From Alkalispirochaeta sp. (GTDB taxonomy: Bacteria > Spirochaetota > Spirochaetia > DSM-27196 > Alkalispirochaetaceae): a stretch of DNA of 64,000 nt. Shown one piece after another: positions 6,937 through 23,791 of this stretch. Location of the stretch: positions 2,176,001 through 2,240,000 of the forward strand of contig OZ271854.1 in assembly GCA_965601925.1 (NCBI GenBank). The letters run 5' to 3'. The translations under genes were made by a program, and so were the position numbers. The notes beneath the pieces were generated by a model. It ran no database searches. It was not told the origin of the DNA and worked only from the letters and a program-made list of their open reading frames with translations. Numbering within the stretch: the stretch's first letter is position 1; each line of letters begins with the position of its first letter.

Positions 6937-6957
6937 CGGGTGACCTGCTCCCTGAAA

Positions 6958-7758: not shown

Positions 7759-7793
7759 CGCCCCGACAGCCGATCGTCGCTGATGAGGCGTCG

Positions 7794-8057: not shown

Positions 8058-8129
8058 AATGTCTCTCCCTCCTGTTATATCCGGGAAAGACCCACCTTCC
8101 TGCTGGACCAGTTTTCAGGGAGCAGGTCA

Positions 8130-8280
8130 GAGGTGCGACACGAATCCTCTTTTTCATGTGTTAAGGTCGAACGAAGTGAGCCCGAAGGGCTTGGCCTTTA
8201 CACATGAAAACGAGGGCGTACAATGAAAAAACTGCGGGAGGACCTTTCGGTTTGGGCGATTATGCGAAGTAGGCTGTTCT
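8130..8280. promoter_or_regulatory. Conserved hairpin/promoter element, copy 1 (cut by IS3 on the left)
   Basis: Stem 8146-8215, inner agcccGAAgggct, TTTACA(8197)-16-TACAAT(8219); homologous to copies at 11210 and 22821. Confidence 0.75.
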
Positions 8281-8290
8281 GGTATATCGC

Positions 8291-8602
8291 CTACATCGCC
8301 CGTTGTTCCGGGAGTTTCCCAATGATCTTGCGAACTTCGTCGGTCTCAACGAGTTGATCCGTCACATATCGGTGGACGATTGAACTGATGAGCGTTTGAT
8401 AGGGGATTCCTTCCTTGACCGCCTTTTTTTTCGTCAATTGCAGATCCTCTTCCGAAATTCGCAAGCTAATAGTCTGCGTCTTTCGCGCCCGATCGAGAAT
8501 GGCTTCAATCCGTTCGCGTTCTTCACCAACGACACTTTCCATCTGATCGATGGAATCTTCGATTTCTTGTTCTTCAGGCGTCAGGTCAAATATGTTCATC
8601 AC
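8291..8602 (-). CDS. CopG/RHH antitoxin (BrnA-like)
   Basis: KTQTISLRISEEDL...GIPYQTLISSIVHRY; overlaps toxin stop. Confidence 0.85.
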   Translation of the reverse strand: MMNIFDLTPEEQEIEDSIDQMESVVGEERERIEAILDRARKTQTISLRISEEDLQLTKKKAVKEGIPYQTLISSIVHRYVTDQLVETDEVRKIIGKLPEQRAM

Positions 8603-8862
8603 GAGCCTCCATATTGTTTGTGGTATTTCCGGCTTGGGAATGCCGTTTTCAGGACGACAGCTTCATCGTCATCGACGACAAATGGAACAATCCAGGTGTA
8701 ATCACGCATTCGAAGCACGAAGTATCGTTGTCCCGGCCGGGTCGGATTTTTGATGATATCGACATATCGCTTTTCCATGATGATGCCGGCAATTTCTTCA
8801 AATGAGACGCCGCGAGTTTGCTTGAGTACCTCATTTTTGTCCTCGTCCCAGATGATTTTCAT
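8599..8862 (-). CDS. brnT: BrnT-family toxin
   Basis: IWDEDKNEVLKQTRGVSFEEI...VPFV...LKTAFPSRK. Confidence 0.85.
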   Translation of the reverse strand: MKIIWDEDKNEVLKQTRGVSFEEIAGIIMEKRYVDIIKNPTRPGQRYFVLRMRDYTWIVPFVVDDDEAVVLKTAFPSRKYHKQYGGS

Positions 8863-9012
8863 TCGGTATCATGATACATCCAGCGTATATACATTGTAAA
8901 CAATCGCATCGATCAATGTGTTACGAACGTTCTCCGGGATGCGTGTGCTTTTGCATTTTGATCTGGTAGAGGCTATTTCTTGGTGATTTGCGCTTAGGCT
9001 CCGCCGGGCGCA

Positions 9013-9134
9013 ATGTAACACCGAGCTGACCTGCAAGATGCGGCCCGGAGTCGCGAAGTGACGGAGGGATTGGCGCGTGCCTTGCGCATCGCAAGGCGCG
9101 TGACAAAGCAGATTGACTGGTCCAGCGTTATGTT
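9013..9134 (-). repeat. attC site, long family, IS1182 inserted at R''
   Basis: ATGTAAC-accga-GCTGACC...GGTCCAGC-gttat-GTT|IS. Confidence 0.9.
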
Positions 9135-10796
9135 GAGACTGTCGCACAACGCAGTCGTGGTCTGCTAGCATCGTGCCTGGGAGGAGCCAATGCCGAACTA
9201 CCGAGGAAACGAGGGGCAGGATCTCATGATTCCGGTGTGCCTGGATGATCAGCTGGTGCCGGGTACCATCGAACACGCCATCACCTGGATCGTCGACCAC
9301 GAGATCGATACGTCGGTGTTCGATGCAGCCTATCACAACGACCACGGCGGTCGCCCGGCCTGTGATCCGGCCGCGCTGGTGAAGATCATCTTGTTCGCCT
9401 ACTCCCGGGGCATCCTCTCCTCACGGAAGATCGAGGAAGCCTGCCGGACCAACATCGTGTTCATGGCCCTCAGTGGTGATATCCGGCCCGACCACGCCAC
9501 GATCGCCCGGTTCGTTACCGGCCATCCCGCGGCGGTTCGTCGTGTGTTCCGGGATGTGCTGATGATTGCGGCACAGGGCGATCTGATCGGTGGGGACGTG
9601 TTTGCACTGGACGGCTGCAAGATCAGCTCGAACGCCGCCCGAGAGCACGCGGGGACGCGACGGGAACTGGAGAAGAAGAGAGCGAAGCTTGAAGCACGTC
9701 TTGAGGCGATACTGCTCACTCATCGCGGCGCAGATGAGGCATGCACCTCCGATAACGACGATCAACAGGGCAGACCCGGTTCAGGGACAGCTGATCGCTA
9801 CCGGGCGCAGATCGACCGCATCAAAGGATTCCTCGACGCCCATCCACCCCGCACCGGCACCAGCGGACGCGAGGTGAAATCCAACATCACCGACAATCAG
9901 AGTGCCACACTGAAAACCGGGAGTGGCTACATCCAGGGCTATAACGCGCTGGCGATGGTGGATGCGAAGCACCAGATCGTGCTACACGCTGAACCGGTCG
10001 GTCAGATCCATGAGGCACCGCTGCTGCCACGGATGGTGCGCCGGTCACTGCATACACTGCGCAGGTTCGCACATCCCCAGGCCTGCACACCGACCATCCT
10101 CGCTGATACCAACTATTTCACCGAATCCAACGCCCGGTTCCTGATCGACTCTGATCTCGACGGCTATATCCCCGACCATCAGTTCCGGAATCGGGACATG
10201 CGATTCGCGGATCGGAGTCGATCGCGCCGGGCGGCACACCGGCGCTTCACCCAAGCCGATTTCCTCTACCAGAGCGACACCGACAGCTATCGTTGTCCGG
10301 CCGGCAAGACGTTGCGACGGCGCACCCGGGAGGTGGTTGCCGGGCGTCGTGGTACGCGCTATGAAGCGAAGCAATCAGACTGCAGTGCATGCGATCTCAC
10401 CTCCCGCTGTCTGATCCGTACTGCAACCCGGCGTAGACTCTTCCGCGGTGACGGTCCAGCCGGGACCTATGCCCAACAGATGCGTGATCGGATCGACACC
10501 GAACGGGGTCGACGGATGTACGCCAGACGCATGGGTATCGTGGAGCCGGTCTTTGCGAACATCACCGCCACCAAGGGCATGCGACGATTCACGCTCCGAG
10601 GCCGGGCGAAGGTCCGCATTCAATGGCTCCTGTACACGCTGGTGCACAACATCGAAAAGATCGCCACCACCGGGCTGATTCATCGGTTAGTCGGAGTTTG
10701 ATCCGGGTGGGTGGCGGGTTGAAGAATGCCTGGCCACGATCACTGGCCGTGAACTACTCGCTCCGCGTGGGTTCCCACGCGTTGTGCGACAGCCTC
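9135..10796 (+). mobile_element. IS1182-family element, copy 1 (1662 bp)
   Basis: IRs GAGACTGTCGCACAACGC / GCGTTGTGCGACAGCCTC (17/18); flanking GTT duplication. Confidence 0.95.
9190..10701 (+). CDS. IS1182-family DDE transposase
   Basis: SSRKIEEAC, PDHATIARF, LDGCKI, QGYN, CPAG, VEPVFANI. Confidence 0.95.
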   Translation: MPNYRGNEGQDLMIPVCLDDQLVPGTIEHAITWIVDHEIDTSVFDAAYHNDHGGRPACDPAALVKIILFAYSRGILSSRKIEEACRTNIVFMALSGDIRPDHATIARFVTGHPAAVRRVFRDVLMIAAQGDLIGGDVFALDGCKISSNAAREHAGTRRELEKKRAKLEARLEAILLTHRGADEACTSDNDDQQGRPGSGTADRYRAQIDRIKGFLDAHPPRTGTSGREVKSNITDNQSATLKTGSGYIQGYNALAMVDAKHQIVLHAEPVGQIHEAPLLPRMVRRSLHTLRRFAHPQACTPTILADTNYFTESNARFLIDSDLDGYIPDHQFRNRDMRFADRSRSRRAAHRRFTQADFLYQSDTDSYRCPAGKTLRRRTREVVAGRRGTRYEAKQSDCSACDLTSRCLIRTATRRRLFRGDGPAGTYAQQMRDRIDTERGRRMYARRMGIVEPVFANITATKGMRRFTLRGRAKVRIQWLLYTLVHNIEKIATTGLIHRLVGV

Positions 10797-10850
10797 GTTA
10801 CATTGCGACCTGCTTACCAGTATACGAGGAGATTTCCTGTTCTTCTTCTC

Positions 10851-10895
10851 TTTTTCACCGAGTGGCTGAAGCACCACGGTCAACCACCCGGTAAT
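10851..10895. repeat. Conserved hairpin downstream of the 88-aa ORF (copy A)
   Basis: accgagtggctg...caaccacccggt, shared with 22466-22510. Confidence 0.65.
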
Positions 10896-10916
10896 GATTA
10901 TTGGAATGGGGCCTTT

Positions 10917-11183
10917 CTATGAGGCCTTTTCTTGGCGGTGCGTCTGCTTGCCGGCGCGCGCCGCCACTTTGAAGATACATCCGTCGCACTGACCCTTTGT
11001 GCTTTTGCACCTGCAAGCGACGCATACGTCATAGAGATCATAATCATCAATCGCATCGAGGATGAGGCGATTCAGTGTCCTTGTCATTGGCTCATTCTTG
11101 AACCACGCCATTCGCCTGAGAGCAAACACCGCATCGCGGCTCACCTTGGGGACATACGTACCGGCAGTTTTTGTTGTGTGCAT
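10917..11183 (-). CDS. 88-aa hypothetical RHH-like protein with C-terminal Cys cluster (copy A)
   Basis: GGAGG RBS before ATG 11183; YVPKVSRDAVFALRRMAW...PMTRTL; CxxCxC...CxxC; close paralogue at 22529. Confidence 0.8.
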   Translation of the reverse strand: MHTTKTAGTYVPKVSRDAVFALRRMAWFKNEPMTRTLNRLILDAIDDYDLYDVCVACRCKSTKGQCDGCIFKVAARAGKQTHRQEKAS

Positions 11184-11209
11184 TTTCTGCACCTCCATAA
11201 TGAGATGTA

Positions 11210-11385
11210 TGCGAGACAACTCTCGCACCGGAGGTGCGACACGAATCCTCGTTTTCCTGTGTCAAGGTCGAACGCAGAGAGCCCGAAGGGCTTGGCCTTT
11301 ACACAGGGAAACGAGGACGTAGAATGAAAAAACTGCGGGAGGAAATCCTGGTTTAGGCAATTACGCGAAATAGGCCGATTCGGTT
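11210..11385. promoter_or_regulatory. Conserved hairpin/promoter element, copy 2
   Basis: Stem 11247-11316 with compensatory change; TGTCAA in left arm; TTTACA(11298)-16-TAGAAT(11320) in right arm. Confidence 0.8.
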
Positions 11386-11413
11386 TTTGCTTGTGCCGCC
11401 CATCGATGCGTTA

Positions 11414-11812
11414 CTATTTCGCCCAGTTTTCGATATCCAGGCCGTTTATTCGCTCGAAGTGTTTTTGATTGTTCGTTACCAATATCAAATTGTGAGTGAG
11501 CGCCGTTGCAGCGATCAGCAGATCCATATCGGCGACAATATTTCCTTGCTTCTCTAATGACGTTTTGATTTCTCCGAATGTCTCAACCACGGCGGGGGTG
11601 ATGTCTATGATCGGAAACAATTCAGCAATCCGGTATGCTCGAGCAAGATTCTTTTCGACTGCCTTCGATTTCTTAGCTCCGTACACAAGTTCGCCATACG
11701 TGATGACCGATAACGATTTTGGCGAGTTCCGGTATTCATGGAAATTCTGCTTCACTCGTTCATCGCCTTTCAGGCTATAAATGACGATGTCGGTATCGAT
11801 CAAATAGTTCAT
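11414..11812 (-). CDS. vapC: VapC PIN-domain toxin
   Basis: YLIDTDIVI...GELVYG...DLLIAATAL...VTNNQKHFERI. Confidence 0.95.
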   Translation of the reverse strand: MNYLIDTDIVIYSLKGDERVKQNFHEYRNSPKSLSVITYGELVYGAKKSKAVEKNLARAYRIAELFPIIDITPAVVETFGEIKTSLEKQGNIVADMDLLIAATALTHNLILVTNNQKHFERINGLDIENWAK

Positions 11813-12074
11813 TTGTATTTGTAAATCGCGCTGATTCAGTTCGTCCGTTTCGAATGGATTTCACAATATCTTCGGCCGATCGATCATCTTCCCAACTTCC
11901 AGATAGTTTCAGAAATTCATCAGTTGGATTGATATCGAAGGCGCGAGGGAGGGACAGATATTTTTCCAGGATATGGACGACTTCTTGACTGATTGAACGT
12001 CGTTCTTTTGATGCGCGAACGCGCAACGATTCATAGAGTTTTTCGTCGATATCACGTACTTGCAAATTGGCCAT
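11775..12074 (-). CDS. FitA/Arc-like RHH antitoxin
   Basis: MANLQVRDIDEKLYESLRVRASKERRSISQEV; upstream of vapC. Confidence 0.88.
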   Translation of the reverse strand: MANLQVRDIDEKLYESLRVRASKERRSISQEVVHILEKYLSLPRAFDINPTDEFLKLSGSWEDDRSAEDIVKSIRNGRTESARFTNTNELFDRYRHRHL

Positions 12075-12240
12075 AGGTTCTTCTCCGAGTCTCAGTATAC
12101 ATCCATTCATGAATTATGTGTAGATTTGCATGATTCCCATCGTGTGGTCTGGGAATTACGATTAAAGCATTCTCGCACCAGCATTTTGATCTGGTAGAGG
12201 CTATTTCTTGGTGATTTGCGCTTAGGCTCCGCCGGGCGCA

Positions 12241-12362
12241 ATGTAACACCGAGCTGACCTGCAAGATGCGGCCCGGAGTCGCGAAGTGACGGAGGGATTG
12301 GCGCGTGCCTTGCGCATCGCAAGGCGCGTGACAAAGCAGATTGACTGGTCCAGCGTTATGTT
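12241..12362 (-). repeat. attC site, long family, IS1182 inserted at R''
   Basis: Identical to 9013-9134. Confidence 0.9.
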
Positions 12363-14024
12363 GAGACTGTCGCACAACGCAGTCGTGGTCTGCTAGCATC
12401 GTGCCTGGGAGGAGCCAATGCCGAACTACCGAGGAAACGAGGGGCAGGATCTCATGATTCCGGTGTGCCTGGATGATCAGCTGGTGCCGGGTACCATCGA
12501 ACACGCCATCACCTGGATCGTCGACCACGAGATCGATACGTCGGTGTTCGATGCAGCCTATCACAACGACCACGGCGGTCGCCCGGCCTGTGATCCGGCC
12601 GCGCTGGTGAAGATCATCTTGTTCGCCTACTCCCGGGGCATCCTCTCCTCACGGAAGATCGAGGAAGCCTGCCGGACCAACATCGTGTTCATGGCCCTCA
12701 GTGGTGATATCCGGCCCGACCACGCCACGATCGCCCGGTTCGTTACCGGCCATCCCGCGGCGGTTCGTCGTGTGTTCCGGGATGTGCTGATGATTGCGGC
12801 ACAGGGCGATCTGATCGGTGGGGACGTGTTTGCACTGGACGGCTGCAAGATCAGCTCGAACGCCGCCCGAGAGCACGCGGGGACGCGACGGGAACTGGAG
12901 AAGAAGAGAGCGAAGCTTGAAGCACGTCTTGAGGCGATACTGCTCACTCATCGCGGCGCAGATGAGGCATGCACCTCCGATAACGACGATCAACAGGGCA
13001 GACCCGGTTCAGGGACAGCTGATCGCTACCGGGCGCAGATCGACCGCATCAAAGGATTCCTCGACGCCCATCCACCCCGCACCGGCACCAGCGGACGCGA
13101 GGTGAAATCCAACATCACCGACAATCAGAGTGCCACACTGAAAACCGGGAGTGGCTACATCCAGGGCTATAACGCGCTGGCGATGGTGGATGCGAAGCAC
13201 CAGATCGTGCTACACGCTGAACCGGTCGGTCAGATCCATGAGGCACCGCTGCTGCCACGGATGGTGCGCCGGTCACTGCATACACTGCGCAGGTTCGCAC
13301 ATCCCCAGGCCTGCACACCGACCATCCTCGCTGATACCAACTATTTCACCGAATCCAACGCCCGGTTCCTGATCGACTCTGATCTCGACGGCTATATCCC
13401 CGACCATCAGTTCCGGAATCGGGACATGCGATTCGCGGATCGGAGTCGATCGCGCCGGGCGGCACACCGGCGCTTCACCCAAGCCGATTTCCTCTACCAG
13501 AGCGACACCGACAGCTATCGTTGTCCGGCCGGCAAGACGTTGCGACGGCGCACCCGGGAGGTGGTTGCCGGGCGTCGTGGTACGCGCTATGAAGCGAAGC
13601 AATCAGACTGCAGTGCATGCGATCTCACCTCCCGCTGTCTGATCCGTACTGCAACCCGGCGTAGACTCTTCCGCGGTGACGGTCCAGCCGGGACCTATGC
13701 CCAACAGATGCGTGATCGGATCGACACCGAACGGGGTCGACGGATGTACGCCAGACGCATGGGTATCGTGGAGCCGGTCTTTGCGAACATCACCGCCACC
13801 AAGGGCATGCGACGATTCACGCTCCGAGGCCGGGCGAAGGTCCGCATTCAATGGCTCCTGTACACGCTGGTGCACAACATCGAAAAGATCGCCACCACCG
13901 GGCTGATTCATCGGTTAGTCGGAGTTTGATCCGGGTGGGTGGCGGGTTGAAGAATGCCTGGCCACGATCACTGGCCGTGAACTACTCGCTCCGCGTGGGT
14001 TCCCACGCGTTGTGCGACAGCCTC
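12363..14024 (+). mobile_element. IS1182-family element, copy 2
   Basis: Same IRs, length and GTT duplication as copy 1. Confidence 0.95.
12418..13929 (+). CDS. IS1182-family transposase
   Basis: Protein identical to 9190-10701. Confidence 0.95.
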   Translation: MPNYRGNEGQDLMIPVCLDDQLVPGTIEHAITWIVDHEIDTSVFDAAYHNDHGGRPACDPAALVKIILFAYSRGILSSRKIEEACRTNIVFMALSGDIRPDHATIARFVTGHPAAVRRVFRDVLMIAAQGDLIGGDVFALDGCKISSNAAREHAGTRRELEKKRAKLEARLEAILLTHRGADEACTSDNDDQQGRPGSGTADRYRAQIDRIKGFLDAHPPRTGTSGREVKSNITDNQSATLKTGSGYIQGYNALAMVDAKHQIVLHAEPVGQIHEAPLLPRMVRRSLHTLRRFAHPQACTPTILADTNYFTESNARFLIDSDLDGYIPDHQFRNRDMRFADRSRSRRAAHRRFTQADFLYQSDTDSYRCPAGKTLRRRTREVVAGRRGTRYEAKQSDCSACDLTSRCLIRTATRRRLFRGDGPAGTYAQQMRDRIDTERGRRMYARRMGIVEPVFANITATKGMRRFTLRGRAKVRIQWLLYTLVHNIEKIATTGLIHRLVGV

Positions 14025-14039
14025 GTTATATGGCGGGCA

Positions 14040-16031
14040 TTAGGCGCCTTGATACCATTCTGACGGTATTAACTTGCGTCCGGCACGCCATTCCTCAACC
14101 TCATGTATATTCCCTATTTCGCCGTATATGCTTTTATCTGCGTGATCCAGAATGATGGCCTGCCATTCGCCATCACTTTCTGCCACGGCATCGGCAAGTG
14201 TACGGAAAATTTGCCTTACAGCTTGCTCATCATCTTCGTCATCGTATCGAGAATCCTCTTCTTCTACTTCCTCACCGCTCTTTACCTTAGGGAAATAGAC
14301 CTGACTTGGCTGATCAAATACGGCGAAACTCGGTACTACCGACCAGCTTTGCTCTAAAAAAAATTTTTGAAGCGCGCATATCAGAGCTAAATGGAAGGAA
14401 ACCCAGTTTGATGCGCTGCCAATTTCTGACAAATAATGCCAGTTTCTATCGGTACTTATTACCTGCATATTCAAGTCTTTAACGTTCAATGACGGTGGTG
14501 TTTCGCGGTATTTTGCTTCTACGTCTAAAGTTTGAAGATAGTTCAAAATGTATTGCGAAATACGCATTTTAGCCGCAGAGAGACGCCTTTCCACCGCTTT
14601 AGGATCAATAACTTGCAAAAGATGCTCTCGGCGGGCTACAAGAGTTGCAATACGTTCTTCGAGCTCGCCACCGGCTTGAAGCTTTTCAAATGTTTCAACC
14701 GAGGCTTTCAGATGGCCCAAGAACAAAAAAAGAGTTTTTGCCTTTTGAAACTCTTCCTTTGTTTTTTGGTCACGAAGAAACAGCGTGTCATACCGATCTC
14801 TTAGAATTCTTTGCTCCTCGATTAAGCTTTCAAGTTCTTTATTTAAACGTTCTTCTTCTCTGTCGAATGATGTCGGGATTTCCTCAACGCGCTTCGACTC
14901 GGCTTCATATTCCTCGAACACCGAAGCTATTCTTGACATTTCTTCACTACTTCTTGGATGATCATCGCTTCCACATAGAGGGCAGACCTTGGCATCAGAG
15001 GCCAGATCTGTTAGCCAGTTGGAAATATGCAACCTGTCAGAACGTCTTTTTACAGTCACGCTATACTCTGTTAGACTGGTCTTAAGCTGCTTCACGTCGT
15101 CGAGTCGTTTACGTAGCTTTGCCAATCGCTGGCTTAAATCATCCTCTTCCTTGTCTAATTCAATTAGCGCCTGACTCGCTTTTTGAAAATTACTTAACTC
15201 TGCAATTGAATAATTCGGGGCCTCTTGGACTAGTTGTCTTGCGATTAGGATTAGTTCGTCTGGGTCCGAAACATCTCGTGGGTCTCGATCGAGCAAACCA
15301 TATTGTTGGGCTATTCTGAGTTGCCCCTGTAGATTATTCGACCACGATTTTGAGTGAGCTTTCGCTCGTTCAAAATCGCGTTCAAGTGCTTTTAGACGCT
15401 GTTCGAGCTCCTGCAGTTCCTGTCTAGCTTTCAGAACCTCTATATTCTCTGCGCCCAGTATGAAAGGAAGCCAGTTGCGAAGTCGTTCGCGATGTTCATG
15501 AGCATGCGTTTTATAGAATAGGATGTTCTGATTTGCGACTATGTCTTGGCTTTGAAAGACCAACGCAACCAAATCTCGGAAGCCCAAACGTGCTTGATAG
15601 GCTTTTCTTTCGAACTCGCCCTCGAGAGAAAAATATGGCACATTGGAAATTGTGTTTAAGATGTTTTTGACCCCTTCGGGGTTCTCGTTGGCCGTTTCAA
15701 TGACGGGGGGAACTGAAATTTCCTTTGCGCGGGTCACATAGAAATTTGAAGACACCTTATTGTCTTTCGGCACGGCACGAGCGATAAGAATTTGCTCAGA
15801 TTGTGTTTGAAATGCGACACCGTACCAGGAGGCATAGTCGCGTATGACATCAATAGGCACATTACATTCTGTTGAAGCAAGACAGTAATCAATCAGTGGT
15901 ATTATTGCAGATTTTCCTGTTCGAGATGCGCCGGTTATCACGTTCAGCTTTCCTGGTACAAATTCAACAACTCTTGGTGGGAATGTTGAATCGATTGGCC
16001 AAATTAAAACTTTTAACAGTTGGAATTGCAT
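14040..16031 (-). CDS. lmuB: Lamassu LmuB-like SMC/ABC ATPase (DUF3732)
   Basis: Walker A GASRTGKS, coiled coil with CPLC hook, GSASNW signature, FDQPSQVYFP; ATG coupled to upstream TAA. Confidence 0.88.
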   Translation of the reverse strand: MQFQLLKVLIWPIDSTFPPRVVEFVPGKLNVITGASRTGKSAIIPLIDYCLASTECNVPIDVIRDYASWYGVAFQTQSEQILIARAVPKDNKVSSNFYVTRAKEISVPPVIETANENPEGVKNILNTISNVPYFSLEGEFERKAYQARLGFRDLVALVFQSQDIVANQNILFYKTHAHEHRERLRNWLPFILGAENIEVLKARQELQELEQRLKALERDFERAKAHSKSWSNNLQGQLRIAQQYGLLDRDPRDVSDPDELILIARQLVQEAPNYSIAELSNFQKASQALIELDKEEDDLSQRLAKLRKRLDDVKQLKTSLTEYSVTVKRRSDRLHISNWLTDLASDAKVCPLCGSDDHPRSSEEMSRIASVFEEYEAESKRVEEIPTSFDREEERLNKELESLIEEQRILRDRYDTLFLRDQKTKEEFQKAKTLFLFLGHLKASVETFEKLQAGGELEERIATLVARREHLLQVIDPKAVERRLSAAKMRISQYILNYLQTLDVEAKYRETPPSLNVKDLNMQVISTDRNWHYLSEIGSASNWVSFHLALICALQKFFLEQSWSVVPSFAVFDQPSQVYFPKVKSGEEVEEEDSRYDDEDDEQAVRQIFRTLADAVAESDGEWQAIILDHADKSIYGEIGNIHEVEEWRAGRKLIPSEWYQGA

Positions 16032-16534
16032 TACAAGACAACCTTCAGGTATTGTGCCGCCGATGAAACACTTATTTGGGAAAACCATTTGCCGAGAATT
16101 TGTGCTTTTTCCCCATTTTTCATATGCATTTCATTAATTAACCCTCTTTTTATATTCCCATATTCATGAATTCGTGGATAAATCTTTGCGGAATCTTTAT
16201 CCCAAACTATAAGCCCCGACTTTATTGCAATATCAATTGCCGAAATTGTTACGCTTCGCTTCTTTTTTATTCTTTCTTGTAGAGAAACCAGCAAATCGAT
16301 TTCTTTCTTCTGCTCGAAACCTCTTACGTAAGACTGAAGGCTTTTCCGGCGATTATTAACAGAAAGCAAGAAATGATCGGTTGTGAGCAGTGGATACGCC
16401 ATGAAGTGTAATAATGCCACAGGAGCGTCTCCAGTTGAATGATGACTAACGAAACCAACAGTGAAGTTCCAGAGTTGGTATGCTCCTATCACTGGAGAAT
16501 TCCAGTTTCTAACTTCATCTACTAAGCTTTCCAT
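16031..16534 (-). CDS. lmuC: ABC three-component middle component (LmuC-like)
   Basis: NSPVIGAYQLWNF...AQILGKWF; lies between effector and ATPase. Confidence 0.8.
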   Translation of the reverse strand: MESLVDEVRNWNSPVIGAYQLWNFTVGFVSHHSTGDAPVALLHFMAYPLLTTDHFLLSVNNRRKSLQSYVRGFEQKKEIDLLVSLQERIKKKRSVTISAIDIAIKSGLIVWDKDSAKIYPRIHEYGNIKRGLINEMHMKNGEKAQILGKWFSQISVSSAAQYLKVVL

Positions 16535-16546
16535 GTTTTGCTCTCT

Positions 16547-17692
16547 CTATGCTTTTTGAATCAAGTTTTGCCAGCGTGGATGCCAACCCAGGAGTTCGTT
16601 ATCTGCTAATGTATGATACGTCCCCGCAATGGTTGAGCTTGGAGGAGGCATGTTCCTTATTGTTGCTTGATGAGTTGAGCAATCAAGTAGCAACAGTTGT
16701 CCTCGGACTTCTTCGGGTTTGTCTTGTTGAGTTAGAAAAATTCTCTTTTTTGAATGGACCCAGAACTCCGATAACTTGTTCTGAAAATCCACAGCGGAGT
16801 CCTCGTCTATGATTTCATTTTCGATCCACTTTTGACGGTTGACTTTCGCCTTTAGAAACGCAGTGACCGACTCAACAATCTCTTCTTCTGTGCAGTCAAT
16901 TAGTTCTAACTGTTTAATATATGAAGGGCGTAGCTTTAATTGCATTTTTTTCATTTTATCGTCGATAGGATCTATCAAAGTGAAATCTATCAACTCTCTT
17001 TGTCGCACACGATCAAAAAGAACGGATTTCTCTTTGTAAAAATCGTCCCAAGTAATGCAAGCTATTTGGTTTTCAGCGATCATTTCGGTCAGTGTATTGT
17101 GCAACCAGCCAGTAAGATTTTGAACAAGGAAAGGGATTTGGGTTTCAGGTACAAGTATTCGCTTTAGTTCGTCACGTACTTCATCTAAGCCCGCACCGTC
17201 TCCTATTATTAAACTAAATTTCTTAATTATTTCAATAAATAAATTTTCATTATTCAATAAATAGCTATAATATTTCCAAATATTGTGTTCATTATTAATA
17301 TCAGAGAAGCCTTTCTTGATTTCTGAAATAACTTGACGAGCGTCATCGGTATCTTTCGCAGAATTTAGTCTATTAACAAGGGCTGGCTTACCATGATTGT
17401 TGGCGTAGAGAATGAAGCATGTGGTTTCCGTGTCAATATTGCTTTCTTGAACAAGAATTGCCCAGTTATAAAATGTTTTCCAAAGATTTGTAGATCTATC
17501 TGTTAAAGGATTTCCCAGGACTGAGGACTTATCTTCCTCAGAAACCATATCTCCTTCACGAGAAGTTACAGATACATCTCCATTGAACTCAACATATACA
17601 GTTCCACCGGGGCCAGTACGCAATAAGTGAAAAAGTGCTCGAGGAATTTGGATAGAATAGCCCAGAAATTGACCAGATGCATTCGAACTCAT
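16547..17692 (-). CDS. lmuA: Lamassu effector LmuA-like (Cap4-like nuclease plus C-terminal domain)
   Basis: ASGQFLGYSIQ..RAL, E...D...EEDK, NPLTDRSTNLWKT, GTYHTLAD...GWHPRW. Confidence 0.8.
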   Translation of the reverse strand: MSSNASGQFLGYSIQIPRALFHLLRTGPGGTVYVEFNGDVSVTSREGDMVSEEDKSSVLGNPLTDRSTNLWKTFYNWAILVQESNIDTETTCFILYANNHGKPALVNRLNSAKDTDDARQVISEIKKGFSDINNEHNIWKYYSYLLNNENLFIEIIKKFSLIIGDGAGLDEVRDELKRILVPETQIPFLVQNLTGWLHNTLTEMIAENQIACITWDDFYKEKSVLFDRVRQRELIDFTLIDPIDDKMKKMQLKLRPSYIKQLELIDCTEEEIVESVTAFLKAKVNRQKWIENEIIDEDSAVDFQNKLSEFWVHSKKRIFLTQQDKPEEVRGQLLLLDCSTHQATIRNMPPPSSTIAGTYHTLADNELLGWHPRWQNLIQKA

Positions 17693-17844
17693 AAATCTGC
17701 AACCTTAGTAATTCTATGCCAACCTCGTAGATAGTCAAATAGTAATATCGACGTTACAAAACCATCTCGCCAATATTAAACACATCGGGCCAGCGTCATT
17801 GTTTAGCATCCTCCATCGTGAAGAATCTTACCTGCTCTAAAGCC

Positions 17845-17961
17845 ATATAACACCGAGCTGACCTGCAAGATGCGGCCCGGAGCCGTAGGCGGAGGGATTG
17901 GCGCGGTTTTTGCGCACGCAAAAGCCGTGACAAAGCAGATTGACTGGTCCAGCGTTATGTT
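17845..17961 (-). repeat. attC site, long family, IS1182 inserted at R''
   Basis: ATATAAC-accga-GCTGACC...GGTCCAGC-gttat-GTT|IS with variant internal hairpins. Confidence 0.9.
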
Positions 17962-19623
17962 GAGACTGTCGCACAACGCAGTCGTGGTCTGCTAGCATCG
18001 TGCCTGGGAGGAGCCAATGCCGAACTACCGAGGAAACGAGGGGCAGGATCTCATGATTCCGGTGTGCCTGGATGATCAGCTGGTGCCGGGTACCATCGAA
18101 CACGCCATCACCTGGATCGTCGACCACGAGATCGATACGTCGGTGTTCGATGCAGCCTATCACAACGACCACGGCGGTCGCCCGGCCTGTGATCCGGCCG
18201 CGCTGGTGAAGATCATCTTGTTCGCCTACTCCCGGGGCATCCTCTCCTCACGGAAGATCGAGGAAGCCTGCCGGACCAACATCGTGTTCATGGCCCTCAG
18301 TGGTGATATCCGGCCCGACCACGCCACGATCGCCCGGTTCGTTACCGGCCATCCCGCGGCGGTTCGTCGTGTGTTCCGGGATGTGCTGATGATTGCGGCA
18401 CAGGGCGATCTGATCGGTGGGGACGTGTTTGCACTGGACGGCTGCAAGATCAGCTCGAACGCCGCCCGAGAGCACGCGGGGACGCGACGGGAACTGGAGA
18501 AGAAGAGAGCGAAGCTTGAAGCACGTCTTGAGGCGATACTGCTCACTCATCGCGGCGCAGATGAGGCATGCACCTCCGATAACGACGATCAACAGGGCAG
18601 ACCCGGTTCAGGGACAGCTGATCGCTACCGGGCGCAGATCGACCGCATCAAAGGATTCCTCGACGCCCATCCACCCCGCACCGGCACCAGCGGACGCGAG
18701 GTGAAATCCAACATCACCGACAATCAGAGTGCCACACTGAAAACCGGGAGTGGCTACATCCAGGGCTATAACGCGCTGGCGATGGTGGATGCGAAGCACC
18801 AGATCGTGCTACACGCTGAACCGGTCGGTCAGATCCATGAGGCACCGCTGCTGCCACGGATGGTGCGCCGGTCACTGCATACACTGCGCAGGTTCGCACA
18901 TCCCCAGGCCTGCACACCGACCATCCTCGCTGATACCAACTATTTCACCGAATCCAACGCCCGGTTCCTGATCGACTCTGATCTCGACGGCTATATCCCC
19001 GACCATCAGTTCCGGAATCGGGACATGCGATTCGCGGATCGGAGTCGATCGCGCCGGGCGGCACACCGGCGCTTCACCCAAGCCGATTTCCTCTACCAGA
19101 GCGACACCGACAGCTATCGTTGTCCGGCCGGCAAGACGTTGCGACGGCGCACCCGGGAGGTGGTTGCCGGGCGTCGTGGTACGCGCTATGAAGCGAAGCA
19201 ATCAGACTGCAGTGCATGCGATCTCACCTCCCGCTGTCTGATCCGTACTGCAACCCGGCGTAGACTCTTCCGCGGTGACGGTCCAGCCGGGACCTATGCC
19301 CAACAGATGCGTGATCGGATCGACACCGAACGGGGTCGACGGATGTACGCCAGACGCATGGGTATCGTGGAGCCGGTCTTTGCGAACATCACCGCCACCA
19401 AGGGCATGCGACGATTCACGCTCCGAGGCCGGGCGAAGGTCCGCATTCAATGGCTCCTGTACACGCTGGTGCACAACATCGAAAAGATCGCCACCACCGG
19501 GCTGATTCATCGGTTAGTCGGAGTTTGATCCGGGTGGGTGGCGGGTTGAAGAATGCCTGGCCACGATCACTGGCCGTGAACTACTCGCTCCGCGTGGGTT
19601 CCCACGCGTTGTGCGACAGCCTC
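17962..19623 (+). mobile_element. IS1182-family element, copy 3
   Basis: Same IRs, length and GTT duplication. Confidence 0.95.
18017..19528 (+). CDS. IS1182-family transposase
   Basis: Protein identical to the other copies. Confidence 0.95.
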   Translation: MPNYRGNEGQDLMIPVCLDDQLVPGTIEHAITWIVDHEIDTSVFDAAYHNDHGGRPACDPAALVKIILFAYSRGILSSRKIEEACRTNIVFMALSGDIRPDHATIARFVTGHPAAVRRVFRDVLMIAAQGDLIGGDVFALDGCKISSNAAREHAGTRRELEKKRAKLEARLEAILLTHRGADEACTSDNDDQQGRPGSGTADRYRAQIDRIKGFLDAHPPRTGTSGREVKSNITDNQSATLKTGSGYIQGYNALAMVDAKHQIVLHAEPVGQIHEAPLLPRMVRRSLHTLRRFAHPQACTPTILADTNYFTESNARFLIDSDLDGYIPDHQFRNRDMRFADRSRSRRAAHRRFTQADFLYQSDTDSYRCPAGKTLRRRTREVVAGRRGTRYEAKQSDCSACDLTSRCLIRTATRRRLFRGDGPAGTYAQQMRDRIDTERGRRMYARRMGIVEPVFANITATKGMRRFTLRGRAKVRIQWLLYTLVHNIEKIATTGLIHRLVGV

Positions 19624-19624
19624 G

Positions 19625-22306
19625 TTATGTTGATTCTTTGAGAGCGTACTTTCGCTCCCTCTTTTCGAATGCCTCGACACCACCCTCAAGGTTTAATAGC
19701 GAGTTTCGGTGGGATAGGTCTTCAATTGTAGCAAAGTCGACGTTGGTCTTAGCCTCGGGCATTGATAAGATAGTAGTTAGCTCGGCGTCAGCATTGACTA
19801 CAATGTTGGCATTGTGTGTAGCGAATATCATCTGCCGTGAAGACTTCTTTTCCTTGATCAGGTCAACCAGGTAGTTCGCGATCAAAGAACTATCTAGATG
19901 GGCCTCTGGTTCATCAATGATGATTGGGTTATTTCCAAACAACAACAGAATCACGATCACCGTCGTGCAACGTTGACCAAACGAGGACGCTTCGATTGGC
20001 CGTCCTCGATATCTCACATTGACTCGAATCACTTCGTTAAAATCGAAATAGGCGACTCGTGCAAGATGTTTATAAATCGAAAAATTAATCTCATCGGCGA
20101 ATACCTTCGCAAGATATCGTCGAGAATTTGTGTCCCCAACAACGTGGTTACGTAAGTCATCTATGGATACACTCTCGTCTATTAGTGCTTTCGGATCGAT
20201 TCCAAACAGACACTCTTTGACCCTATCAGACCTATAGTTGAACTCTGTTCCCAAATCACCGAAATGATCTATGAAACGCGCGAACAGATTCTCTGTTGCT
20301 GTTTCTTCGTCTATCCCTACATTCAGTTCGATTCTATCAATTTCGTTTGGATTACTCCTGTTAACGTTCTCCAAAACTGATTTCAATGCGCCTATTTCGT
20401 TGGTGACTACACTAACCAGGTTGTTGAATGAAGCTTGAAGCTTCGATTCATCGTGTTCCTCAATCTGATCGTCGATCATCGATATCCGCGAATCAATATC
20501 GTCAAGTTCGGCTGATAGAGAATCAACGAGGCTCCCTGAGTTCTTTATATCTTCTATGTTCTCAGGTGTTACTCCGATTCCCTCAAGATATTGACCCAGT
20601 TCGTCTTGTCTTTCTCGATGTTGAGTCTGGAGTTTATTTTCAGTCTCGATTTCTTTATCGAAGATAGACTCGGACAGGAACGATGTGTGTAGCTGCGAGA
20701 GCCCTTTCAAAAACTCGTTATATGCGACCAGATAATGGGAGCTATCTTCATTGTTTTGGACTGGAGGATGGTTCTTAAGCAACTCATTGACGTCATCTCT
20801 CAGTCTTTCCAAACGTGTTCGTTCGGCCCTAATACCGACAAGTTTTCTATTAGATTCGGTCACGGAATCGTTCAGGGTTTTGTAGTCGTCTCCTTCAATT
20901 GTCGCTGATACTTTCTTGTTGCTGTCTAAACTCAAGACAATACGACGACGTTCAGTGATTGCCTGTTGCTTCTCGACTAATAGACGGATGATATCTTCTA
21001 CTTCGGAAGTAGCTGTTGTTACAGCCAGTTCTTTCTCCGCGACATGAGAGTTACGGCGTCGAATCCGATCGTAAATGGCGTCGGTGAACTTCCGAGGATT
21101 GGTGGCATATTCTTCGATCTCGTTCTGTTCGAGAAACTCTAACCCCTCCGCTGAGTGGTCCACCTGAACAAAATCCGAATGACTTACATTTGAACCATCG
21201 GGGGTGATCGTGTTTTCCTTGTTAAACGTTGTAGAGGCCCCACTACGGATTACATCGACCAGCACGTTGAGCAAAGTGCTTTTCCCGGTTCCCCGGCCCC
21301 CGGTTACACACGTCAGAAAGGGACTAAGTTCCCAGTCTATCCTTACACCGGCGAAACAGAATGTCGAAGGTTCCGTACCGGTTCTGTTGATGATCACATT
21401 TTCGGGATAGTCCATATTCATTCTGGTTATACGTTTAGGCGCAAAAGGAGGACGAGCCTCGCCGATCTTTACTCTGTGCGCAGGCTCGAAGAAGACCTGG
21501 CGGAGCCCTTCAAAAGTTAGATCAGCTTTTATCCAAGTGATGTCTTTGTGGATTTGGCCGTTTTCTTCGCATCGTTTTCCGAGATAGTGATCAAGATCGT
21601 CGAACGAATGAGCATCGCTTCCAGAAAAAACGGGTTTGGGTATTGATGCCGAACTTGAGTCATCATATCGATTGGCAGACAGAAACCATTCAACGTTCTG
21701 TGATCCACCAAAAAATCCATCGGAAATCTTATCGATCTCATCGCTTATTATGCGTTTGCGTGGAGATTTGGAATCCGCTCGAATACCGGCATTGTTTGCG
21801 GCGGCAAGAATAAGAAATGGACGCATATCACCGAATACTTCGTGGAGTTTTTCTAATACTTCATGCTGGTTGACGCATGCAGAGACATATTCCGAAGGTT
21901 CGAGCTCAATACAAGATACTCTTGCGCCGTTTATAGTTTTGGATATCTTCAACTCATGCAGAAATCTCTCGATCTTCGACCGATCAAGTTGACTATCGAA
22001 AATGACATGGAGGTTTACCTCTTCCGCTGCTTTGTTGACTGACACATCAAGACGAAGCTCGATATTCGGGAAAAAAACTTTACCTGAGTTGGGATAAAGG
22101 CGCTTGTATTCGCTTAGGAACTCGAAATGACGGGCGACGGAGAAATAGTCGGTGATTCCAAACGCAATAACATCTGATTCATGAAGTTTGCGACAAAAAT
22201 CAACCAGACTGTTAGCGTTTGTCGCCAAATCGTAGCCGTCATTGAGATTTGTACCCGGAGGATGCACATGCAGATCCCATTTCCGCCAAATGGACCCGGT
22301 TGACAT
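19625..22306 (-). CDS. PHP domain + SMC-like ATPase (TrlF/Ppl-like anti-phage protein)
   Basis: WRKWDLHVH, ITDY, GSDAH (PHP); GGRGTGKST, SFGQR, IIIDEPE, FATHN; stop codon inside the R'' box ACATAAC. Confidence 0.85.
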   Translation of the reverse strand: MSTGSIWRKWDLHVHPPGTNLNDGYDLATNANSLVDFCRKLHESDVIAFGITDYFSVARHFEFLSEYKRLYPNSGKVFFPNIELRLDVSVNKAAEEVNLHVIFDSQLDRSKIERFLHELKISKTINGARVSCIELEPSEYVSACVNQHEVLEKLHEVFGDMRPFLILAAANNAGIRADSKSPRKRIISDEIDKISDGFFGGSQNVEWFLSANRYDDSSSASIPKPVFSGSDAHSFDDLDHYLGKRCEENGQIHKDITWIKADLTFEGLRQVFFEPAHRVKIGEARPPFAPKRITRMNMDYPENVIINRTGTEPSTFCFAGVRIDWELSPFLTCVTGGRGTGKSTLLNVLVDVIRSGASTTFNKENTITPDGSNVSHSDFVQVDHSAEGLEFLEQNEIEEYATNPRKFTDAIYDRIRRRNSHVAEKELAVTTATSEVEDIIRLLVEKQQAITERRRIVLSLDSNKKVSATIEGDDYKTLNDSVTESNRKLVGIRAERTRLERLRDDVNELLKNHPPVQNNEDSSHYLVAYNEFLKGLSQLHTSFLSESIFDKEIETENKLQTQHRERQDELGQYLEGIGVTPENIEDIKNSGSLVDSLSAELDDIDSRISMIDDQIEEHDESKLQASFNNLVSVVTNEIGALKSVLENVNRSNPNEIDRIELNVGIDEETATENLFARFIDHFGDLGTEFNYRSDRVKECLFGIDPKALIDESVSIDDLRNHVVGDTNSRRYLAKVFADEINFSIYKHLARVAYFDFNEVIRVNVRYRGRPIEASSFGQRCTTVIVILLLFGNNPIIIDEPEAHLDSSLIANYLVDLIKEKKSSRQMIFATHNANIVVNADAELTTILSMPEAKTNVDFATIEDLSHRNSLLNLEGGVEAFEKRERKYALKEST

Positions 22307-22340
22307 GCAAAAATTATGGATTGATTTGTCGGGATAAGCA

Positions 22341-22366
22341 ACATAATACAGACACCACCTGCGGCC
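22341..22366 (-). repeat. Degenerate attC half-site
   Basis: aagcaacataaT-acaga-caccacctgcgg resembles aagcaacataaC-aaccg-catcacctgcgc at 2558. Confidence 0.45.
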
Positions 22367-22465
22367 CGAAGCTGCTCTGCTAATGAAGGAGTTGGTAAGG
22401 GTTTAGCGCATACAAAACCGCCGGCTGATAAAAAATCATACTATGTCTTGGTTTTCGAAATAGCG

Positions 22466-22510
22466 TTTTTTACCGAGTGGCTGAAGCACGAAGCCCAACC
22501 ACCCGGTAAT
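22466..22510. repeat. Conserved hairpin downstream of the 88-aa ORF (copy B)
   Basis: Matches 10851-10895. Confidence 0.65.
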
Positions 22511-22528
22511 AACTAATGGGACTAAGCC

Positions 22529-22795
22529 TTACGAGGCTTTTTCTTGGCGGCATGTTTGCTTGTGGGCGCGTGCCGCCACTTTGAAAATGCATCCATCGCA
22601 TGGACCCTTCGGACTTTTGCACCGACAGGCGGCGCAGACATCATAGAGGTCATAATCATCGATTGCATCGAGAATGAGGCGATCCAATGTCCTGGTCATT
22701 GGCTCATTCTTGAACCACGCCATTCGCCTGAGAGCAAACACCGCATCGCGGCTCACCTTGGGGACATACGTACCAGCGCCAATCTTTTTGTGCAT
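22529..22795 (-). CDS. 88-aa hypothetical RHH-like protein with Cys cluster (copy B)
   Basis: Paralogue of 10917-11183: same length, RBS and conserved Cys. Confidence 0.8.
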   Translation of the reverse strand: MHKKIGAGTYVPKVSRDAVFALRRMAWFKNEPMTRTLDRLILDAIDDYDLYDVCAACRCKSPKGPCDGCIFKVAARAHKQTCRQEKAS

Positions 22796-22820
22796 TTCCT
22801 GCACCTCCATGAATGATGTA

Positions 22821-22982
22821 TGCGGGAAAGCCATGCTTGGTCCCGCACCGGAGGTGCGCGACGCTCCTCGTTTTCATGTGTCAAGGTCGAACGAAGTGAG
22901 CCCGAAGGGCTTGGCCTTTACACATGAAAAAGAGGACGTACCATGAGAAGACTGCGGGAGCAGGTTAGGTTGAGGCAATTTC
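22821..22982. promoter_or_regulatory. Conserved hairpin/promoter element, copy 3
   Basis: Same stem and inner hairpins; TTTACA(22917)-16-TACCAT(22939). Confidence 0.8.
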
Positions 22983-22988
22983 GGGGTG

Positions 22989-23309
22989 TTACCGGAGGTT
23001 TCTTCGGAGCAATATGTCTTCGATGTTTCGCCGCCCATCAATTACGGCAAGGATCAATACTCGATCGGATTCTTGCGTATAGAACACGCGCCATGGCGCG
23101 ACGATGATCTCTCGATATTTGGTGATGTTCTGCCGTTCGAGTTCCGGAATGACCCGTCCGGTTTCCGGAAATTCTGATAGTCGCGATACTTCGGAATCAA
23201 TCTTTTCTGCGATGTTCTTCGCAATAGTCGCTGAAGAATGACTGATAATCCAATCAATGATTTCTCGGAAGTCTATCGCCGCGCTCGCGGCCCATGTTAT
23301 TTGTGCCAT
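22989..23309 (-). CDS. RelE/ParE-family toxin
   Basis: ITWAASAAIDFREI...FPETGRVIPE...YREIIVAPWRVFY...AVIDGRR. Confidence 0.92.
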   Translation of the reverse strand: MAQITWAASAAIDFREIIDWIISHSSATIAKNIAEKIDSEVSRLSEFPETGRVIPELERQNITKYREIIVAPWRVFYTQESDRVLILAVIDGRRNIEDILLRRNLR

Positions 23310-23315
23310 CGAACA

Positions 23316-23588
23316 TCAATCAGGAATACGACTATAGATGTCGTCCATGACCGATTGATGATCGACGGTTCGGTTGTCTGCAATATCCTTTTCACTTTGC
23401 GATATGAGTTTCATCAGTCCGAGGGCATCTTTCATTTCTTGATAGGTTTCGGTGTCGAGTAGTACCGCTCGTGCTTCACCATTTTGAGTGATTAATATCG
23501 GATTATGAGTGTCATTGACTTGCCGCAACATTTCCGCGGCGTTGCTTTTCACATACGAAATAGGGCGAATATCTGAACGAAGATTCAT
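23316..23588 (-). CDS. Phd/YefM antitoxin
   Basis: IRPISYVKSNAAEML...PILITQNGEARAVL. Confidence 0.92.
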   Translation of the reverse strand: MNLRSDIRPISYVKSNAAEMLRQVNDTHNPILITQNGEARAVLLDTETYQEMKDALGLMKLISQSEKDIADNRTVDHQSVMDDIYSRIPD

Positions 23589-23662
23589 AACCAGCCTCCC
23601 GGTTCAAATAACGTACTTTATTTAGTCTGTTTACGCAATTCATGTGGGGTAACGCAGAAGCA

Positions 23663-23783
23663 ACATAACACCGAGCTGACCTGCAAGATGCGGCCCGGAG
23701 CCGCAGGCGGAGGGATTGGCGCGACTTTTGCGCATGCAAAAGTCGTGACAAAGCAGATTGACTGGTCCAGCGTTATGTTATGA
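23663..23783 (-). repeat. attC site, long family, intact and IS-free (121 bp)
   Basis: Minus strand TCATAAC-ataac-GCTGGACC...GGTCAGC-tcggt-GTTATGT. Confidence 0.92.
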
Positions 23784-23791
23784 CGCCGTCT

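Follow-up and report, generated by a model that had tools for sequence, protein, structure and literature searches.

Results

A conserved module behind three toxin-antitoxin operons

The DNA analysed here, hereafter the window, is a stretch of 64,000 nucleotides (nt) from Alkalispirochaeta sp. (GCA_965601925.1, contig OZ271854.1, genome positions 2176001-2240000, forward strand), a genome assembled as a single 5.05-Mb contig with 0 N. Window positions 1-25,500 make up an array of integron cassettes, which reads on the minus strand. Within this array, toxin-antitoxin (TA) operons of three different families are each followed by a copy, complete or truncated, of one and the same module of about 530 nt, which consists of a hairpin of about 90 nt, an anti-Shine-Dalgarno stretch, a gene for a protein of 88 amino acids (aa) and a small hairpin. 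Window features are on the minus strand unless stated otherwise.

The TA genes were assigned with Pfam. The first pair comprises a BrnT-like toxin (8599-8862; BrnT_toxin, E 5.4e-6, 27.1 bits, which is under the curated cut-off of 34.5) and a CopG/BrnA-like antitoxin (8291-8602; CopG_antitoxin, 30.1 bits, cut-off 28). The second comprises a VapC toxin (11414-11812; PIN, 2.8e-17) and a FitA-like antitoxin of the ribbon-helix-helix (RHH) type (11775-12110, with a likely start at 12074; FitA-like_RHH, 7.9e-10), and the third a ParE toxin (22989-23309; ParE_toxin, 4.8e-15) and a Phd antitoxin (23316-23588; PhdYeFM_antitox, 3.2e-16). The PIN/FitA-like and ParE/Phd pairs exceed the Pfam cut-offs and have the gene pairing of type II TA systems, as which they would be predicted to function. 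A promoter-like site precedes the FitA/VapC pair on the minus strand at 12122-12094. An earlier note on this DNA, made from the sequence alone, had placed three TA pairs of different families upstream of the same hairpin element, and this is borne out both by the Pfam assignments and by the repeat structure described below.

BLAST searches of the genome located the hairpin in four places, the open reading frame (ORF) in four and the small hairpin in four, which together make five loci, c1 to c5. In 5/5 of these the module lies directly 3' of a type II TA operon (BrnTA, FitA/VapC and, three times, Phd/ParE), and all five copies are inside cassette arrays, with none elsewhere in the 5.05 Mb. Copy c1 (8130-8283) follows BrnTA and retains the hairpin leader alone, having been cut by an insertion sequence (IS) of the IS3 family with loss of the ORF. 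Copy c2 (10851-11384) follows FitA/VapC and is succeeded after 55 nt by the R'' core of an attC site, while c3 (22466-23003) follows Phd/ParE and has a likely attC remnant behind it. The other two copies are distant from the window: c4 (genome 3557111-3557647) has Phd/ParE on its 5' side, and c5 (genome 3563606-3563966, in a locus spanning genome 3563606-3564600) is a decaying copy behind ParE.

The hairpins of the window form a 154-nt direct-repeat family, D4 (8130-8283, 11231-11384 and 22850-23003; 100, 86 and 69% identical when ungapped). Aligned with gaps, the hairpin copies are 83-88% identical, and c3 and c4 reach 96%. The hairpin element begins 8 nt past the BrnA stop codon and 30 nt past that of VapC, and takes in the stop codon of ParE; in an alignment of all five copies, homology of the module starts 10-45 nt past the TA stop codons and finishes behind the small hairpin. 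A 281-nt repeat over the small ORF and a 65-nt block behind it each have two copies in the window. In agreement with the earlier note, two of the hairpins continue into the same 88-aa ORF and terminal hairpin. The genes at 10917-11183 (c2) and 22529-22795 (c3) are 85% identical in nucleotides and 89% in amino acids, and the small hairpin block of c2 (10851-10915; 65 nt, repeat D9, with a 9-bp stem) is 80% identical to that of c3 (22466-22530). Copies c1 and c2 have homologous flanks on both sides of their different TA operons. Of the cassette family that the note proposed, the mobile-type cassettes ending in attC and the varying TA operon over a conserved 3' module are upheld, but the hairpin does not mark the cassette end: it stands within the cassette, with the TA operon on one side and the ORF on the other.

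Copy c5 lacks the hairpin, with limits that fall exactly at two copies of ACCTCCGG, the 8-bp direct repeat that flanks the hairpin in c3 and c4. With the hairpin ParE also lost its TAA stop codon and now reads through to an ORF of 144 aa; phd is frameshifted by a deletion of 1 nt. We read c5 as a probable slippage deletion across the palindrome in a decaying copy.

The 88-aa gene and its predicted product

The four paralogues of the 88-aa gene are 84-88% identical in nucleotides, with dN/dS (the ratio of non-synonymous to synonymous substitution rates) of 0.05-0.17 and dS of 0.43-1.0. Such ratios mean that the gene is real and under strong purifying selection. The module is an old, selected, protein-coding unit that lies beside BrnTA, FitA/VapC and Phd/ParE alike.

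Searches of Pfam, PHROGs, NCBIfam and PDB sequences returned nothing meaningful for the protein (best PDB E 0.28), and no RHH sequence family was convincingly matched, the Pfam family of TacA1 being reached by 1/32 members at E 0.11. The alignment contains the conserved motifs YTPQxS, LRRxAW and PMTxTL and, towards the C-terminus, CxxC...CxxC with four near-invariant cysteines. The AlphaFold2 (AF2) model, with a mean pLDDT (predicted local distance difference test) of 81.4, places helices 16-29 and 33-47 behind an extended N-terminus. Foldseek gave no hit at E<=0.001; its top rows were Arc, CopG, AmrZ, TacA and ParG, superposed at 1.6-2.0 Å root-mean-square deviation (rmsd) over 35-37 residues, every E being >1. 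The top rows of VIA (Z 3.9-3.2) were mostly RHH proteins, and the rows included Rv0298, MazE, TacA1, ParD2, VapB12, FitA and the omega repressor, and in a language-model atlas the nearest named clusters were RHH families (0.89-0.90).

A homodimer model scored 0.43 against 0.00 for the best control, with runs agreeing in at least 80% of contacts and a partner pLDDT of at least 61; the mark applied is one reached by 20/30 proteins solved as pairs and by 1/23 solved as single chains. The interface (residues 11-15, 17-28 and 33-48) is RHH-like, and the pass may reflect only the likeness to the many solved RHH dimers. The protein is thus predicted, on modelling grounds, to be a dimeric RHH DNA-binding protein with a Cys4 tail. 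Like the RHH regulators and antitoxin DNA-binding domains Arc, CopG, omega, ParD, TacA and FitA it may have, as predicted, a beta-alpha-alpha N-terminal half that forms an intertwined dimer; unlike them it has no sequence-family match, and its C-terminal CxxC...CxxC is one that they lack.

The structured leader and the hairpins

The 88-aa gene is preceded by a hairpin leader in both c2 (11184-11384) and c3 (22796-23003), which in c2 comprises the imperfect hairpin of ~90 nt and then CACCTCC, the anti-Shine-Dalgarno stretch. Folding of the large hairpin gives an imperfect stem of ~21 pairs with an inner GC hairpin, and the consensus fold of its four copies has 29 pairs and 1 compensatory change. 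CACCTCC stands directly 3' of the hairpin and is able to pair with the GGAGGTG of the gene, a pairing that appears in the folds of c2, c3 and c4.

Terminator and promoter scans found no minus-strand terminator-like site between the TA stop codon and the start of the ORF. They gave no support to the large hairpin as a single-strand promoter for the 88-aa gene either, as no promoter-like site was listed for its minus strand. A conserved promoter-like site, TTTACA-16-TAGAAT, TACAAT or TACCAT (TACAAT in c1), does occur in the right arm on the plus strand; it is directed towards the 3' end of the TA operon and is followed by a terminator-like stem at the TA stop codon (11298-11390, 8195-8295 and 22917-22997). 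Rfam had no match in the whole window at the gathering score, and none in 10780-12260 at E<=1. The idea that the small 3' hairpin is a decayed attC was rejected, its alignment scores of 14 and 13 being those of shuffled sequences (means 13.4 and 14.0).

The cassette array and its attC sites

The integron integrase gene of this genome, intI, is located at genome 3568638-3569561 (TIGR02249, 396.7 bits, cut-off 265), 1.3 Mb from the window array. Among the window ORFs scanned with Pfam to 30.4 kb there is no integrase, and the adjacent intI and attI of a complete integron were not found. Given this distance from intI, the window array is an integrase-less cluster.

An attC repeat of ~127 nt is intact at 23658-23784, where the minus strand is the top strand, and is split by an IS at three further window sites. 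BLAST finds it at 13 places in the genome, 2/13 of them within 10 kb of intI (genome 3558302 and 3564646); these belong to the same attC family as the window copies and match them in orientation. The intact site is the only one to pass a strict attC-type scan of 1-27000, which returned 23663-23778/23783 alone. It has the inverse cores ACATAAC...GTTATGT at 23663-23778 and a fold of -31.4 kcal/mol with DNA parameters, and inverse R''/R' cores are also present in the other copies. On the minus strand its inner repeats are L'' GCTGGACC and L' GGTCAGC, with one extra base on the minus-strand 5' arm, and are set off by 5-nt spacers (ATAAC, TCGGT) and a central stem. As a rule, the extra base marks the top-strand 5' arm of attC. 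The attC top strand is here the minus strand, shared by nearly all cassette genes, and minus-strand tops agree with a plus-strand intI that has its own array on the left.

Three units have complementary ends: 10797/12247 (12/13 bases), 14025/17851 (10/14) and 19624/23669 (12/14). Ends of this kind are those of cassettes, and the "matching ends" that the earlier note ascribed to 10797-12247 are therefore attC cores; the agreement itself, at 12 of 13 bases, is real, but the ends are the standard inverse cores of attC and not those of a new element. The attC body that closes cassette c2 (9020-9134) is 85.6% identical to the intact site at 23658-23784. Its R'' core lies beyond an IS, at 10797-10809 (GTCGCAATGTAAC on the minus strand), and is complementary to the cassette start at 12235-12247 (12/13). 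The same succession of attC body, IS and R'' core recurs at 12248-12362, 12363-14024 (IS copy 2) and 14025-14038, where the core belongs to the ABC-3C cassette described below, and again at 17840-17961, 17962-19623 (IS copy 3) and 19624-19636. A likely remnant of an attC 3' half is found at 22336-22375, between cassette c3 and an ATPase gene; its local alignment to the intact attC scores 27, compared with a mean of 15.0 (standard deviation 2.1, maximum 26) for 300 shuffles.

Other cassettes of the array carry different cargo. A three-gene cassette at 14040-17692, recognised by Pfam and by its matching unit ends, encodes a DUF3732 protein, the ABC-3C middle component MC3 and a CTD7 protein. A gene for an 893-aa AAA_21-type ATPase (19625-22306; Pfam) now forms one unit with cassette c3 (ends 19624/23669). 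From their annotation, the ABC-3C-type set and the ATPase may be regarded as defence-like cargo.

A second, shorter type of attC occurs at 2563-2644 and 5650-5735, one of the copies having GCT for GTT in R', and a truncated copy of the long attC remains at 1550-1644. Further attC matches to the left of the window (genome 2156716-2164932) imply that the array runs past the window's left end. At genome 3734243-3738715, ~170 kb past intI, two long attC sites and one IS copy are present in the opposite orientation.

Insertion sequences and a 1,844-bp duplication

The IS that splits the attC sites is an element of 1,662 bp with a 503-aa transposase. Its window copies are at 9135-10796 (copy 1, plus strand, transposase 9190-10701, within the GTT/AAC triplet of the attC R'' box), 12363-14024 and 17962-19623, and two more are at genome 3564765-3566426 and 3736942-3738603. 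The transposase matches DDE_Tnp_1_6 (7.3e-27), DUF772 (1e-16) and DDE_Tnp_1, and the element has inverted repeats at its ends, GAGACTGTCGCACAACGC and GCGTTGTGCGACAGCCTC. We take it to belong to the IS1182 family, a name that we base on these Pfam domains plus ISfinder usage. The full copies are 100% identical (5/5), are always in one orientation and share a left junction in which ...CCAGCGTTATGTT meets the IS and GTTA... follows it. An intact paralogous attC at genome 3558302-3558426 reads ...GTTATGTTATGTTGATTCC, and the IS-bearing site reads GTTATGTT, then the IS, then GTTATGTTGATTC. Comparison of the two implies insertion in the R'' AAC/GTT triplet with a 3-bp duplication of GTT.

Positions 8953-10796 and 12181-14024 are identical over 1,844 bp with 0 mismatches, a length that covers the complete IS of 1,662 bp together with the attC and 55 nt from the cassette start. 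The right limit of the identity is the end of the IS plus GTTA, and the left limit is abrupt. The first 67 nt of cassette c1 (8953-9019), consisting of the R' core GTTACATTGCGCC and 55 nt, are in this way identical to the first 67 nt of cassette c2 (12181-12247), again R' core and 55 nt. Since the modules of c1 and c2 differ by 12% while this leader is identical, the leader identity goes back to recent copying in connection with the IS and attC. The identical 67-bp leader of the earlier note is hence present as described, but it is the edge of the 1,844-bp duplication rather than part of a chassis.

The IS3-family element that cuts c1 is located at 6941-8129 (orfA 7794-8057, orfB 6958-7758; Pfam HTH_Tnp_1, rve and rve_3) and is bounded by perfect inverted repeats of 17 bp (6941-6957 and 8113-8129). 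The bases on its two sides do not match as a target duplication would, and this points to loss of the 88-aa gene of c1 in a deletion next to the IS.

Homologues and occurrence in other samples

Close homologues of the 88-aa protein amount to 17 proteins of at least 80% identity among 18 candidates, and the family to 39 representatives at E<=1e-3 and 4 at E<=1e-10. Among 61 related genomes the only finds were 4 places in the own genome and a weak match at 38% identity; a search of genome contigs with the 88-aa protein sequence gave a 12-residue match alone, and the family profile detected a homologue in 11/400 other genomes of the class. The distant homologues (31-55% identity) occur in phage, plasmid and island contexts.

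A metagenome scan with a 12-row alignment yielded 19 loci, in which 70/113 ORFs were scanned, the 43 omitted belonging to loci whose gene order is that of another, scanned locus. The neighbours were SSB, ArdC-N, D5 primase, serine recombinase, tyrosine integrase and DUF2958. At 16 genome loci 66/84 ORFs were scanned (those omitted were 11 homologues themselves and 7 other short ORFs), and the neighbours included integrases, ResIII helicases, AbiU2, RloB/AAA_21, IS3, a capsid protein, a reverse transcriptase and HTH_17; one locus had AbiEi/AbiEii. A type II TA family stood beside a distant homologue at 0/19 metagenome loci and 0/16 genome loci. The earlier note had envisaged a general family beside TA genes, and this tabulation of neighbours is the main result against such a general "TA chassis". 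The TA link is therefore specific to this lineage, and the wider family belongs to mobile or island DNA. No comparable hairpin stood out upstream of the distant homologues in the 19 metagenome loci.

In six metagenome loci (L019, L025, L031, L016, L015 and L013) the homologues adjoin SSB, ArdC-like and D5-primase genes. Some distant homologues are fused into proteins of 165-171 aa, and the surroundings are reminiscent of early or leading regions in plasmids or phages.

The c2 cassette was nearly complete in three runs of one sample, possibly the source sample, and partly present in coral-reef and marine metagenomes from other studies; no RNA data set was among those listed as containing it. 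Four runs (X1, X4, X5 and X7) were compared at 80% likeness, and their contigs speak to presence and joins only. Bins over the module had 3-5x the depth of VapBC bins in X1, X4 and X5, and up to 10-11 distinct contigs covered the 88-aa gene. Contigs of X5 bridge the gene and the hairpin as well as the hairpin and VapC (record 20, 11287-11444). In a 17-kb contig of X4 the 3' end of VapC (28 differences/201 nt) leads into unlike sequence in place of the module, and in one X4 contig likeness stops at ~10840, the 3' edge of the module.

Discussion

Collectively our data are best explained by an integrase-less array with five diverged paralogous cassettes in which a conserved 3' passenger module, likely co-transcribed and predicted to encode an RHH product, follows a TA operon of varying family. 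As a whole we regard this explanation as probable, with room for doubt. Its structural part, namely the cassettes, the attC cores, the attC-targeting IS, the recent duplication and the conserved, selected module, is well supported.

A promoter is usually missing from integron cassettes, and TA cassettes carry their own. On that basis the 88-aa gene would gain both expression and retention, the latter through addiction, from the TA operon upstream. The module is likely co-transcribed from the TA promoter. The hairpin between the cistrons may act at the RNA level, through processing, stability or uncoupling, and CACCTCC could gate translation by pairing with the GGAGGTG of the 88-aa gene. The combinations of TA operon and module would arise via recombination, of the illegitimate or the template-switch kind, at or close to the palindrome.

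Several points weigh against this account. The TA link is drawn from five paralogous loci of one genome and partial contig evidence. In c4 the module is followed by a HigBA operon (HigB/HTH_3) with no attC, and its placement at the 3' end of a cassette does not hold for every copy. The 1,844-bp identity stops abruptly on the left, with no residual similarity beyond 8953/12181, a limit for which this account offers no mechanism. The RHH call stems from weak structural scores (Foldseek E >1, VIA Z <=3.9) and zero sequence-family match. One compensatory pair from four copies is thin support for an RNA structure, and a role of the palindrome at the DNA level fits equally well. Finally, the plus-strand promoter-like site might give a ~60-nt antisense RNA, a possibility outside the account given here.

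A bolder form of the same idea is that the hairpin and the RHH/Zn gene make up an unrecognised "TA-hitchhiker" passenger, which recombines at its palindromic leader onto whichever TA operons are available and borrows their promoter and addiction. We consider this possible but rather unlikely.

Somewhat less likely again is a chassis with a swappable slot, in which 5' leader, slot, module and attC persist while the TA operons are exchanged. It would account for the homology of c1 and c2 on both sides of unrelated TA operons, with a 67-nt start that is identical and hairpins that are 88% identical, and the hairpins of c1 and c2 are indeed slightly closer to each other than to those of c3 or c4. 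However, the 5' identity is complete (100%) along 1,844 bp, IS included, as in a recent copy, while the modules differ by 12%; the ParE cassettes are without the leader of c1 or c2, and no mechanism or site of slot exchange is visible. The same pattern is given by joining the module onto different TA cassettes.

We have also weighed the module as a non-autonomous mobile element that inserts behind TA operons with an enzyme supplied in trans, similar to a miniature inverted-repeat transposable element (MITE) or a palindrome-associated transposable element (PATE). Such an element would agree with the discrete limits of the module and its loose ends in other samples (at ~10840 and at the hairpin edge), with the several-fold depth over VapBC in three runs, with the two hairpins near its ends and with the 8-bp repeat ACCTCCGG that flanks the c3 and c4 hairpins, the hairpin being exactly absent in c5. 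The copies are, however, 12-17% apart, with dS of 0.43-1.0 and purifying selection, and are hence old paralogues rather than products of recent transposition. Neither terminal inverted repeats nor a target duplication of the MITE or PATE kind was found at the module ends, and 5/5 copies are in cassette arrays with none elsewhere in the genome. The lost ParE stop codon and the phd frameshift of c5 fit slippage deletion across the palindrome better than an empty site. We judge this explanation improbable.

Equally doubtful is a role of the 88-aa protein as a functional third TA component, either a regulator of RHH type shared by the operons or a second antitoxin-like factor. The gene adjoins a TA operon at 5/5 loci, and the predicted RHH fold would be typical of antitoxin DNA-binding domains. 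Against this, one protein is unlikely to serve three unrelated toxin folds, each pair has its own DNA-binding antitoxin, and distant homologues are beside type II TA at none of the 19 and 16 loci. Each of these TA families is, moreover, widespread as a two-gene system.

That the large hairpin is a second kind of attC, which would make the TA operon and the 88-aa gene separate neighbouring cassettes, is very improbable. A long imperfect palindrome does separate two gene units, and a second attC class does occur in the window (2563-2644 and 5650-5735), but the aligned hairpin copies (11231-11384 and its relatives) have no AAC...GTT inverse cores flanking the stem, and the strict scan of 1-27000 returned the intact attC alone. 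The units with matching attC cores enclose TA operon and module together, and the order of neighbours is identical at five separate array positions. An assembly artefact in a repeat-rich region, where an exact repeat of 1,844 bp and three identical IS copies of 1.66 kb fall within 11 kb, is hardly credible as the source of the shared flanks, because the genome is one contig free of N, contigs of X1 (perhaps the source, and so not independent) cover 11133-12210 with 0 differences and 10797-11082, and contigs of X5, from another study, bridge ORF to hairpin and hairpin to VapC.

The array with its passenger module can be set beside several known systems. Clusters of attC sites without an integron integrase are reportedly termed CALIN. 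Like these, the window array is bounded by attC sites and far from intI (1.3 Mb, on the same chromosome); unlike them, its attC family is the same as that beside the genome's own intI. The array is likely a displaced part of the genome's own integron and not an orphan. It looks as though this integron was broken up and in part inverted, perhaps by way of the identical IS copies, and the targeting of one attC triplet by the IS may account for the split of the array from its integrase.

Large chromosomal integrons hold hundreds of silent cassettes, which TA cassettes are thought to retain. In the Vibrio cholerae superintegron, type II TA cassettes with their own promoters stabilise large arrays of mostly silent cassettes (PMC13108822). 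The likeness lies in type II TA operons that are cassettes between homogeneous attC sites (PMC13108822). Our case differs in that the TA operon shares its cassette with an extra conserved gene and a structured leader, and in that the array is without an adjacent integrase and has repeated insertions of an IS in its attC sites. In the portions of the literature consulted, including those of PMC13108822, we met no mention of a shared passenger module of TA cassettes. Chromosomal integrons have been described as stores of anti-phage defence systems (bioRxiv 10.1101/2024.07.02.601686), and the ABC-3C three-gene set and AAA_21 ATPase that neighbouring cassettes are predicted to encode would be in keeping with this.

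Elements that enter attC sites at a fixed position and in a single orientation are reported for the IS1111-attC group and the group IIC-attC introns (PMC11187229, PMC3001079). The IS found here resembles them in its one-way insertion at a fixed attC position; unlike them it has an IS1182-type DDE transposase rather than a DEDD transposase or a reverse transcriptase. Our search, in the literature sections it reached, found no report of an attC-targeting IS1182-type DDE element. An IS of DDE type in the same attC triplet in 5/5 copies would be a third kind of attC-targeting element.

The frame of these observations, integron TA cassettes, is known, and the new part is the conserved module of hairpin and 88-aa gene behind varying TA operons. 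At the five loci of this one genome, a strongly selected gene of an unnamed family is always in a TA cassette, whatever the toxin family. This suggests that TA operons can be exploited by cassette genes as a source of both expression and retention, and that the joining of modules, and not only whole capture, gives rise to cassettes. One small protein, one hairpin and three TA partners make for a testable case, which also adds an uncharacterised family of predicted RHH/Cys4 proteins found in phage, plasmid and island contexts.

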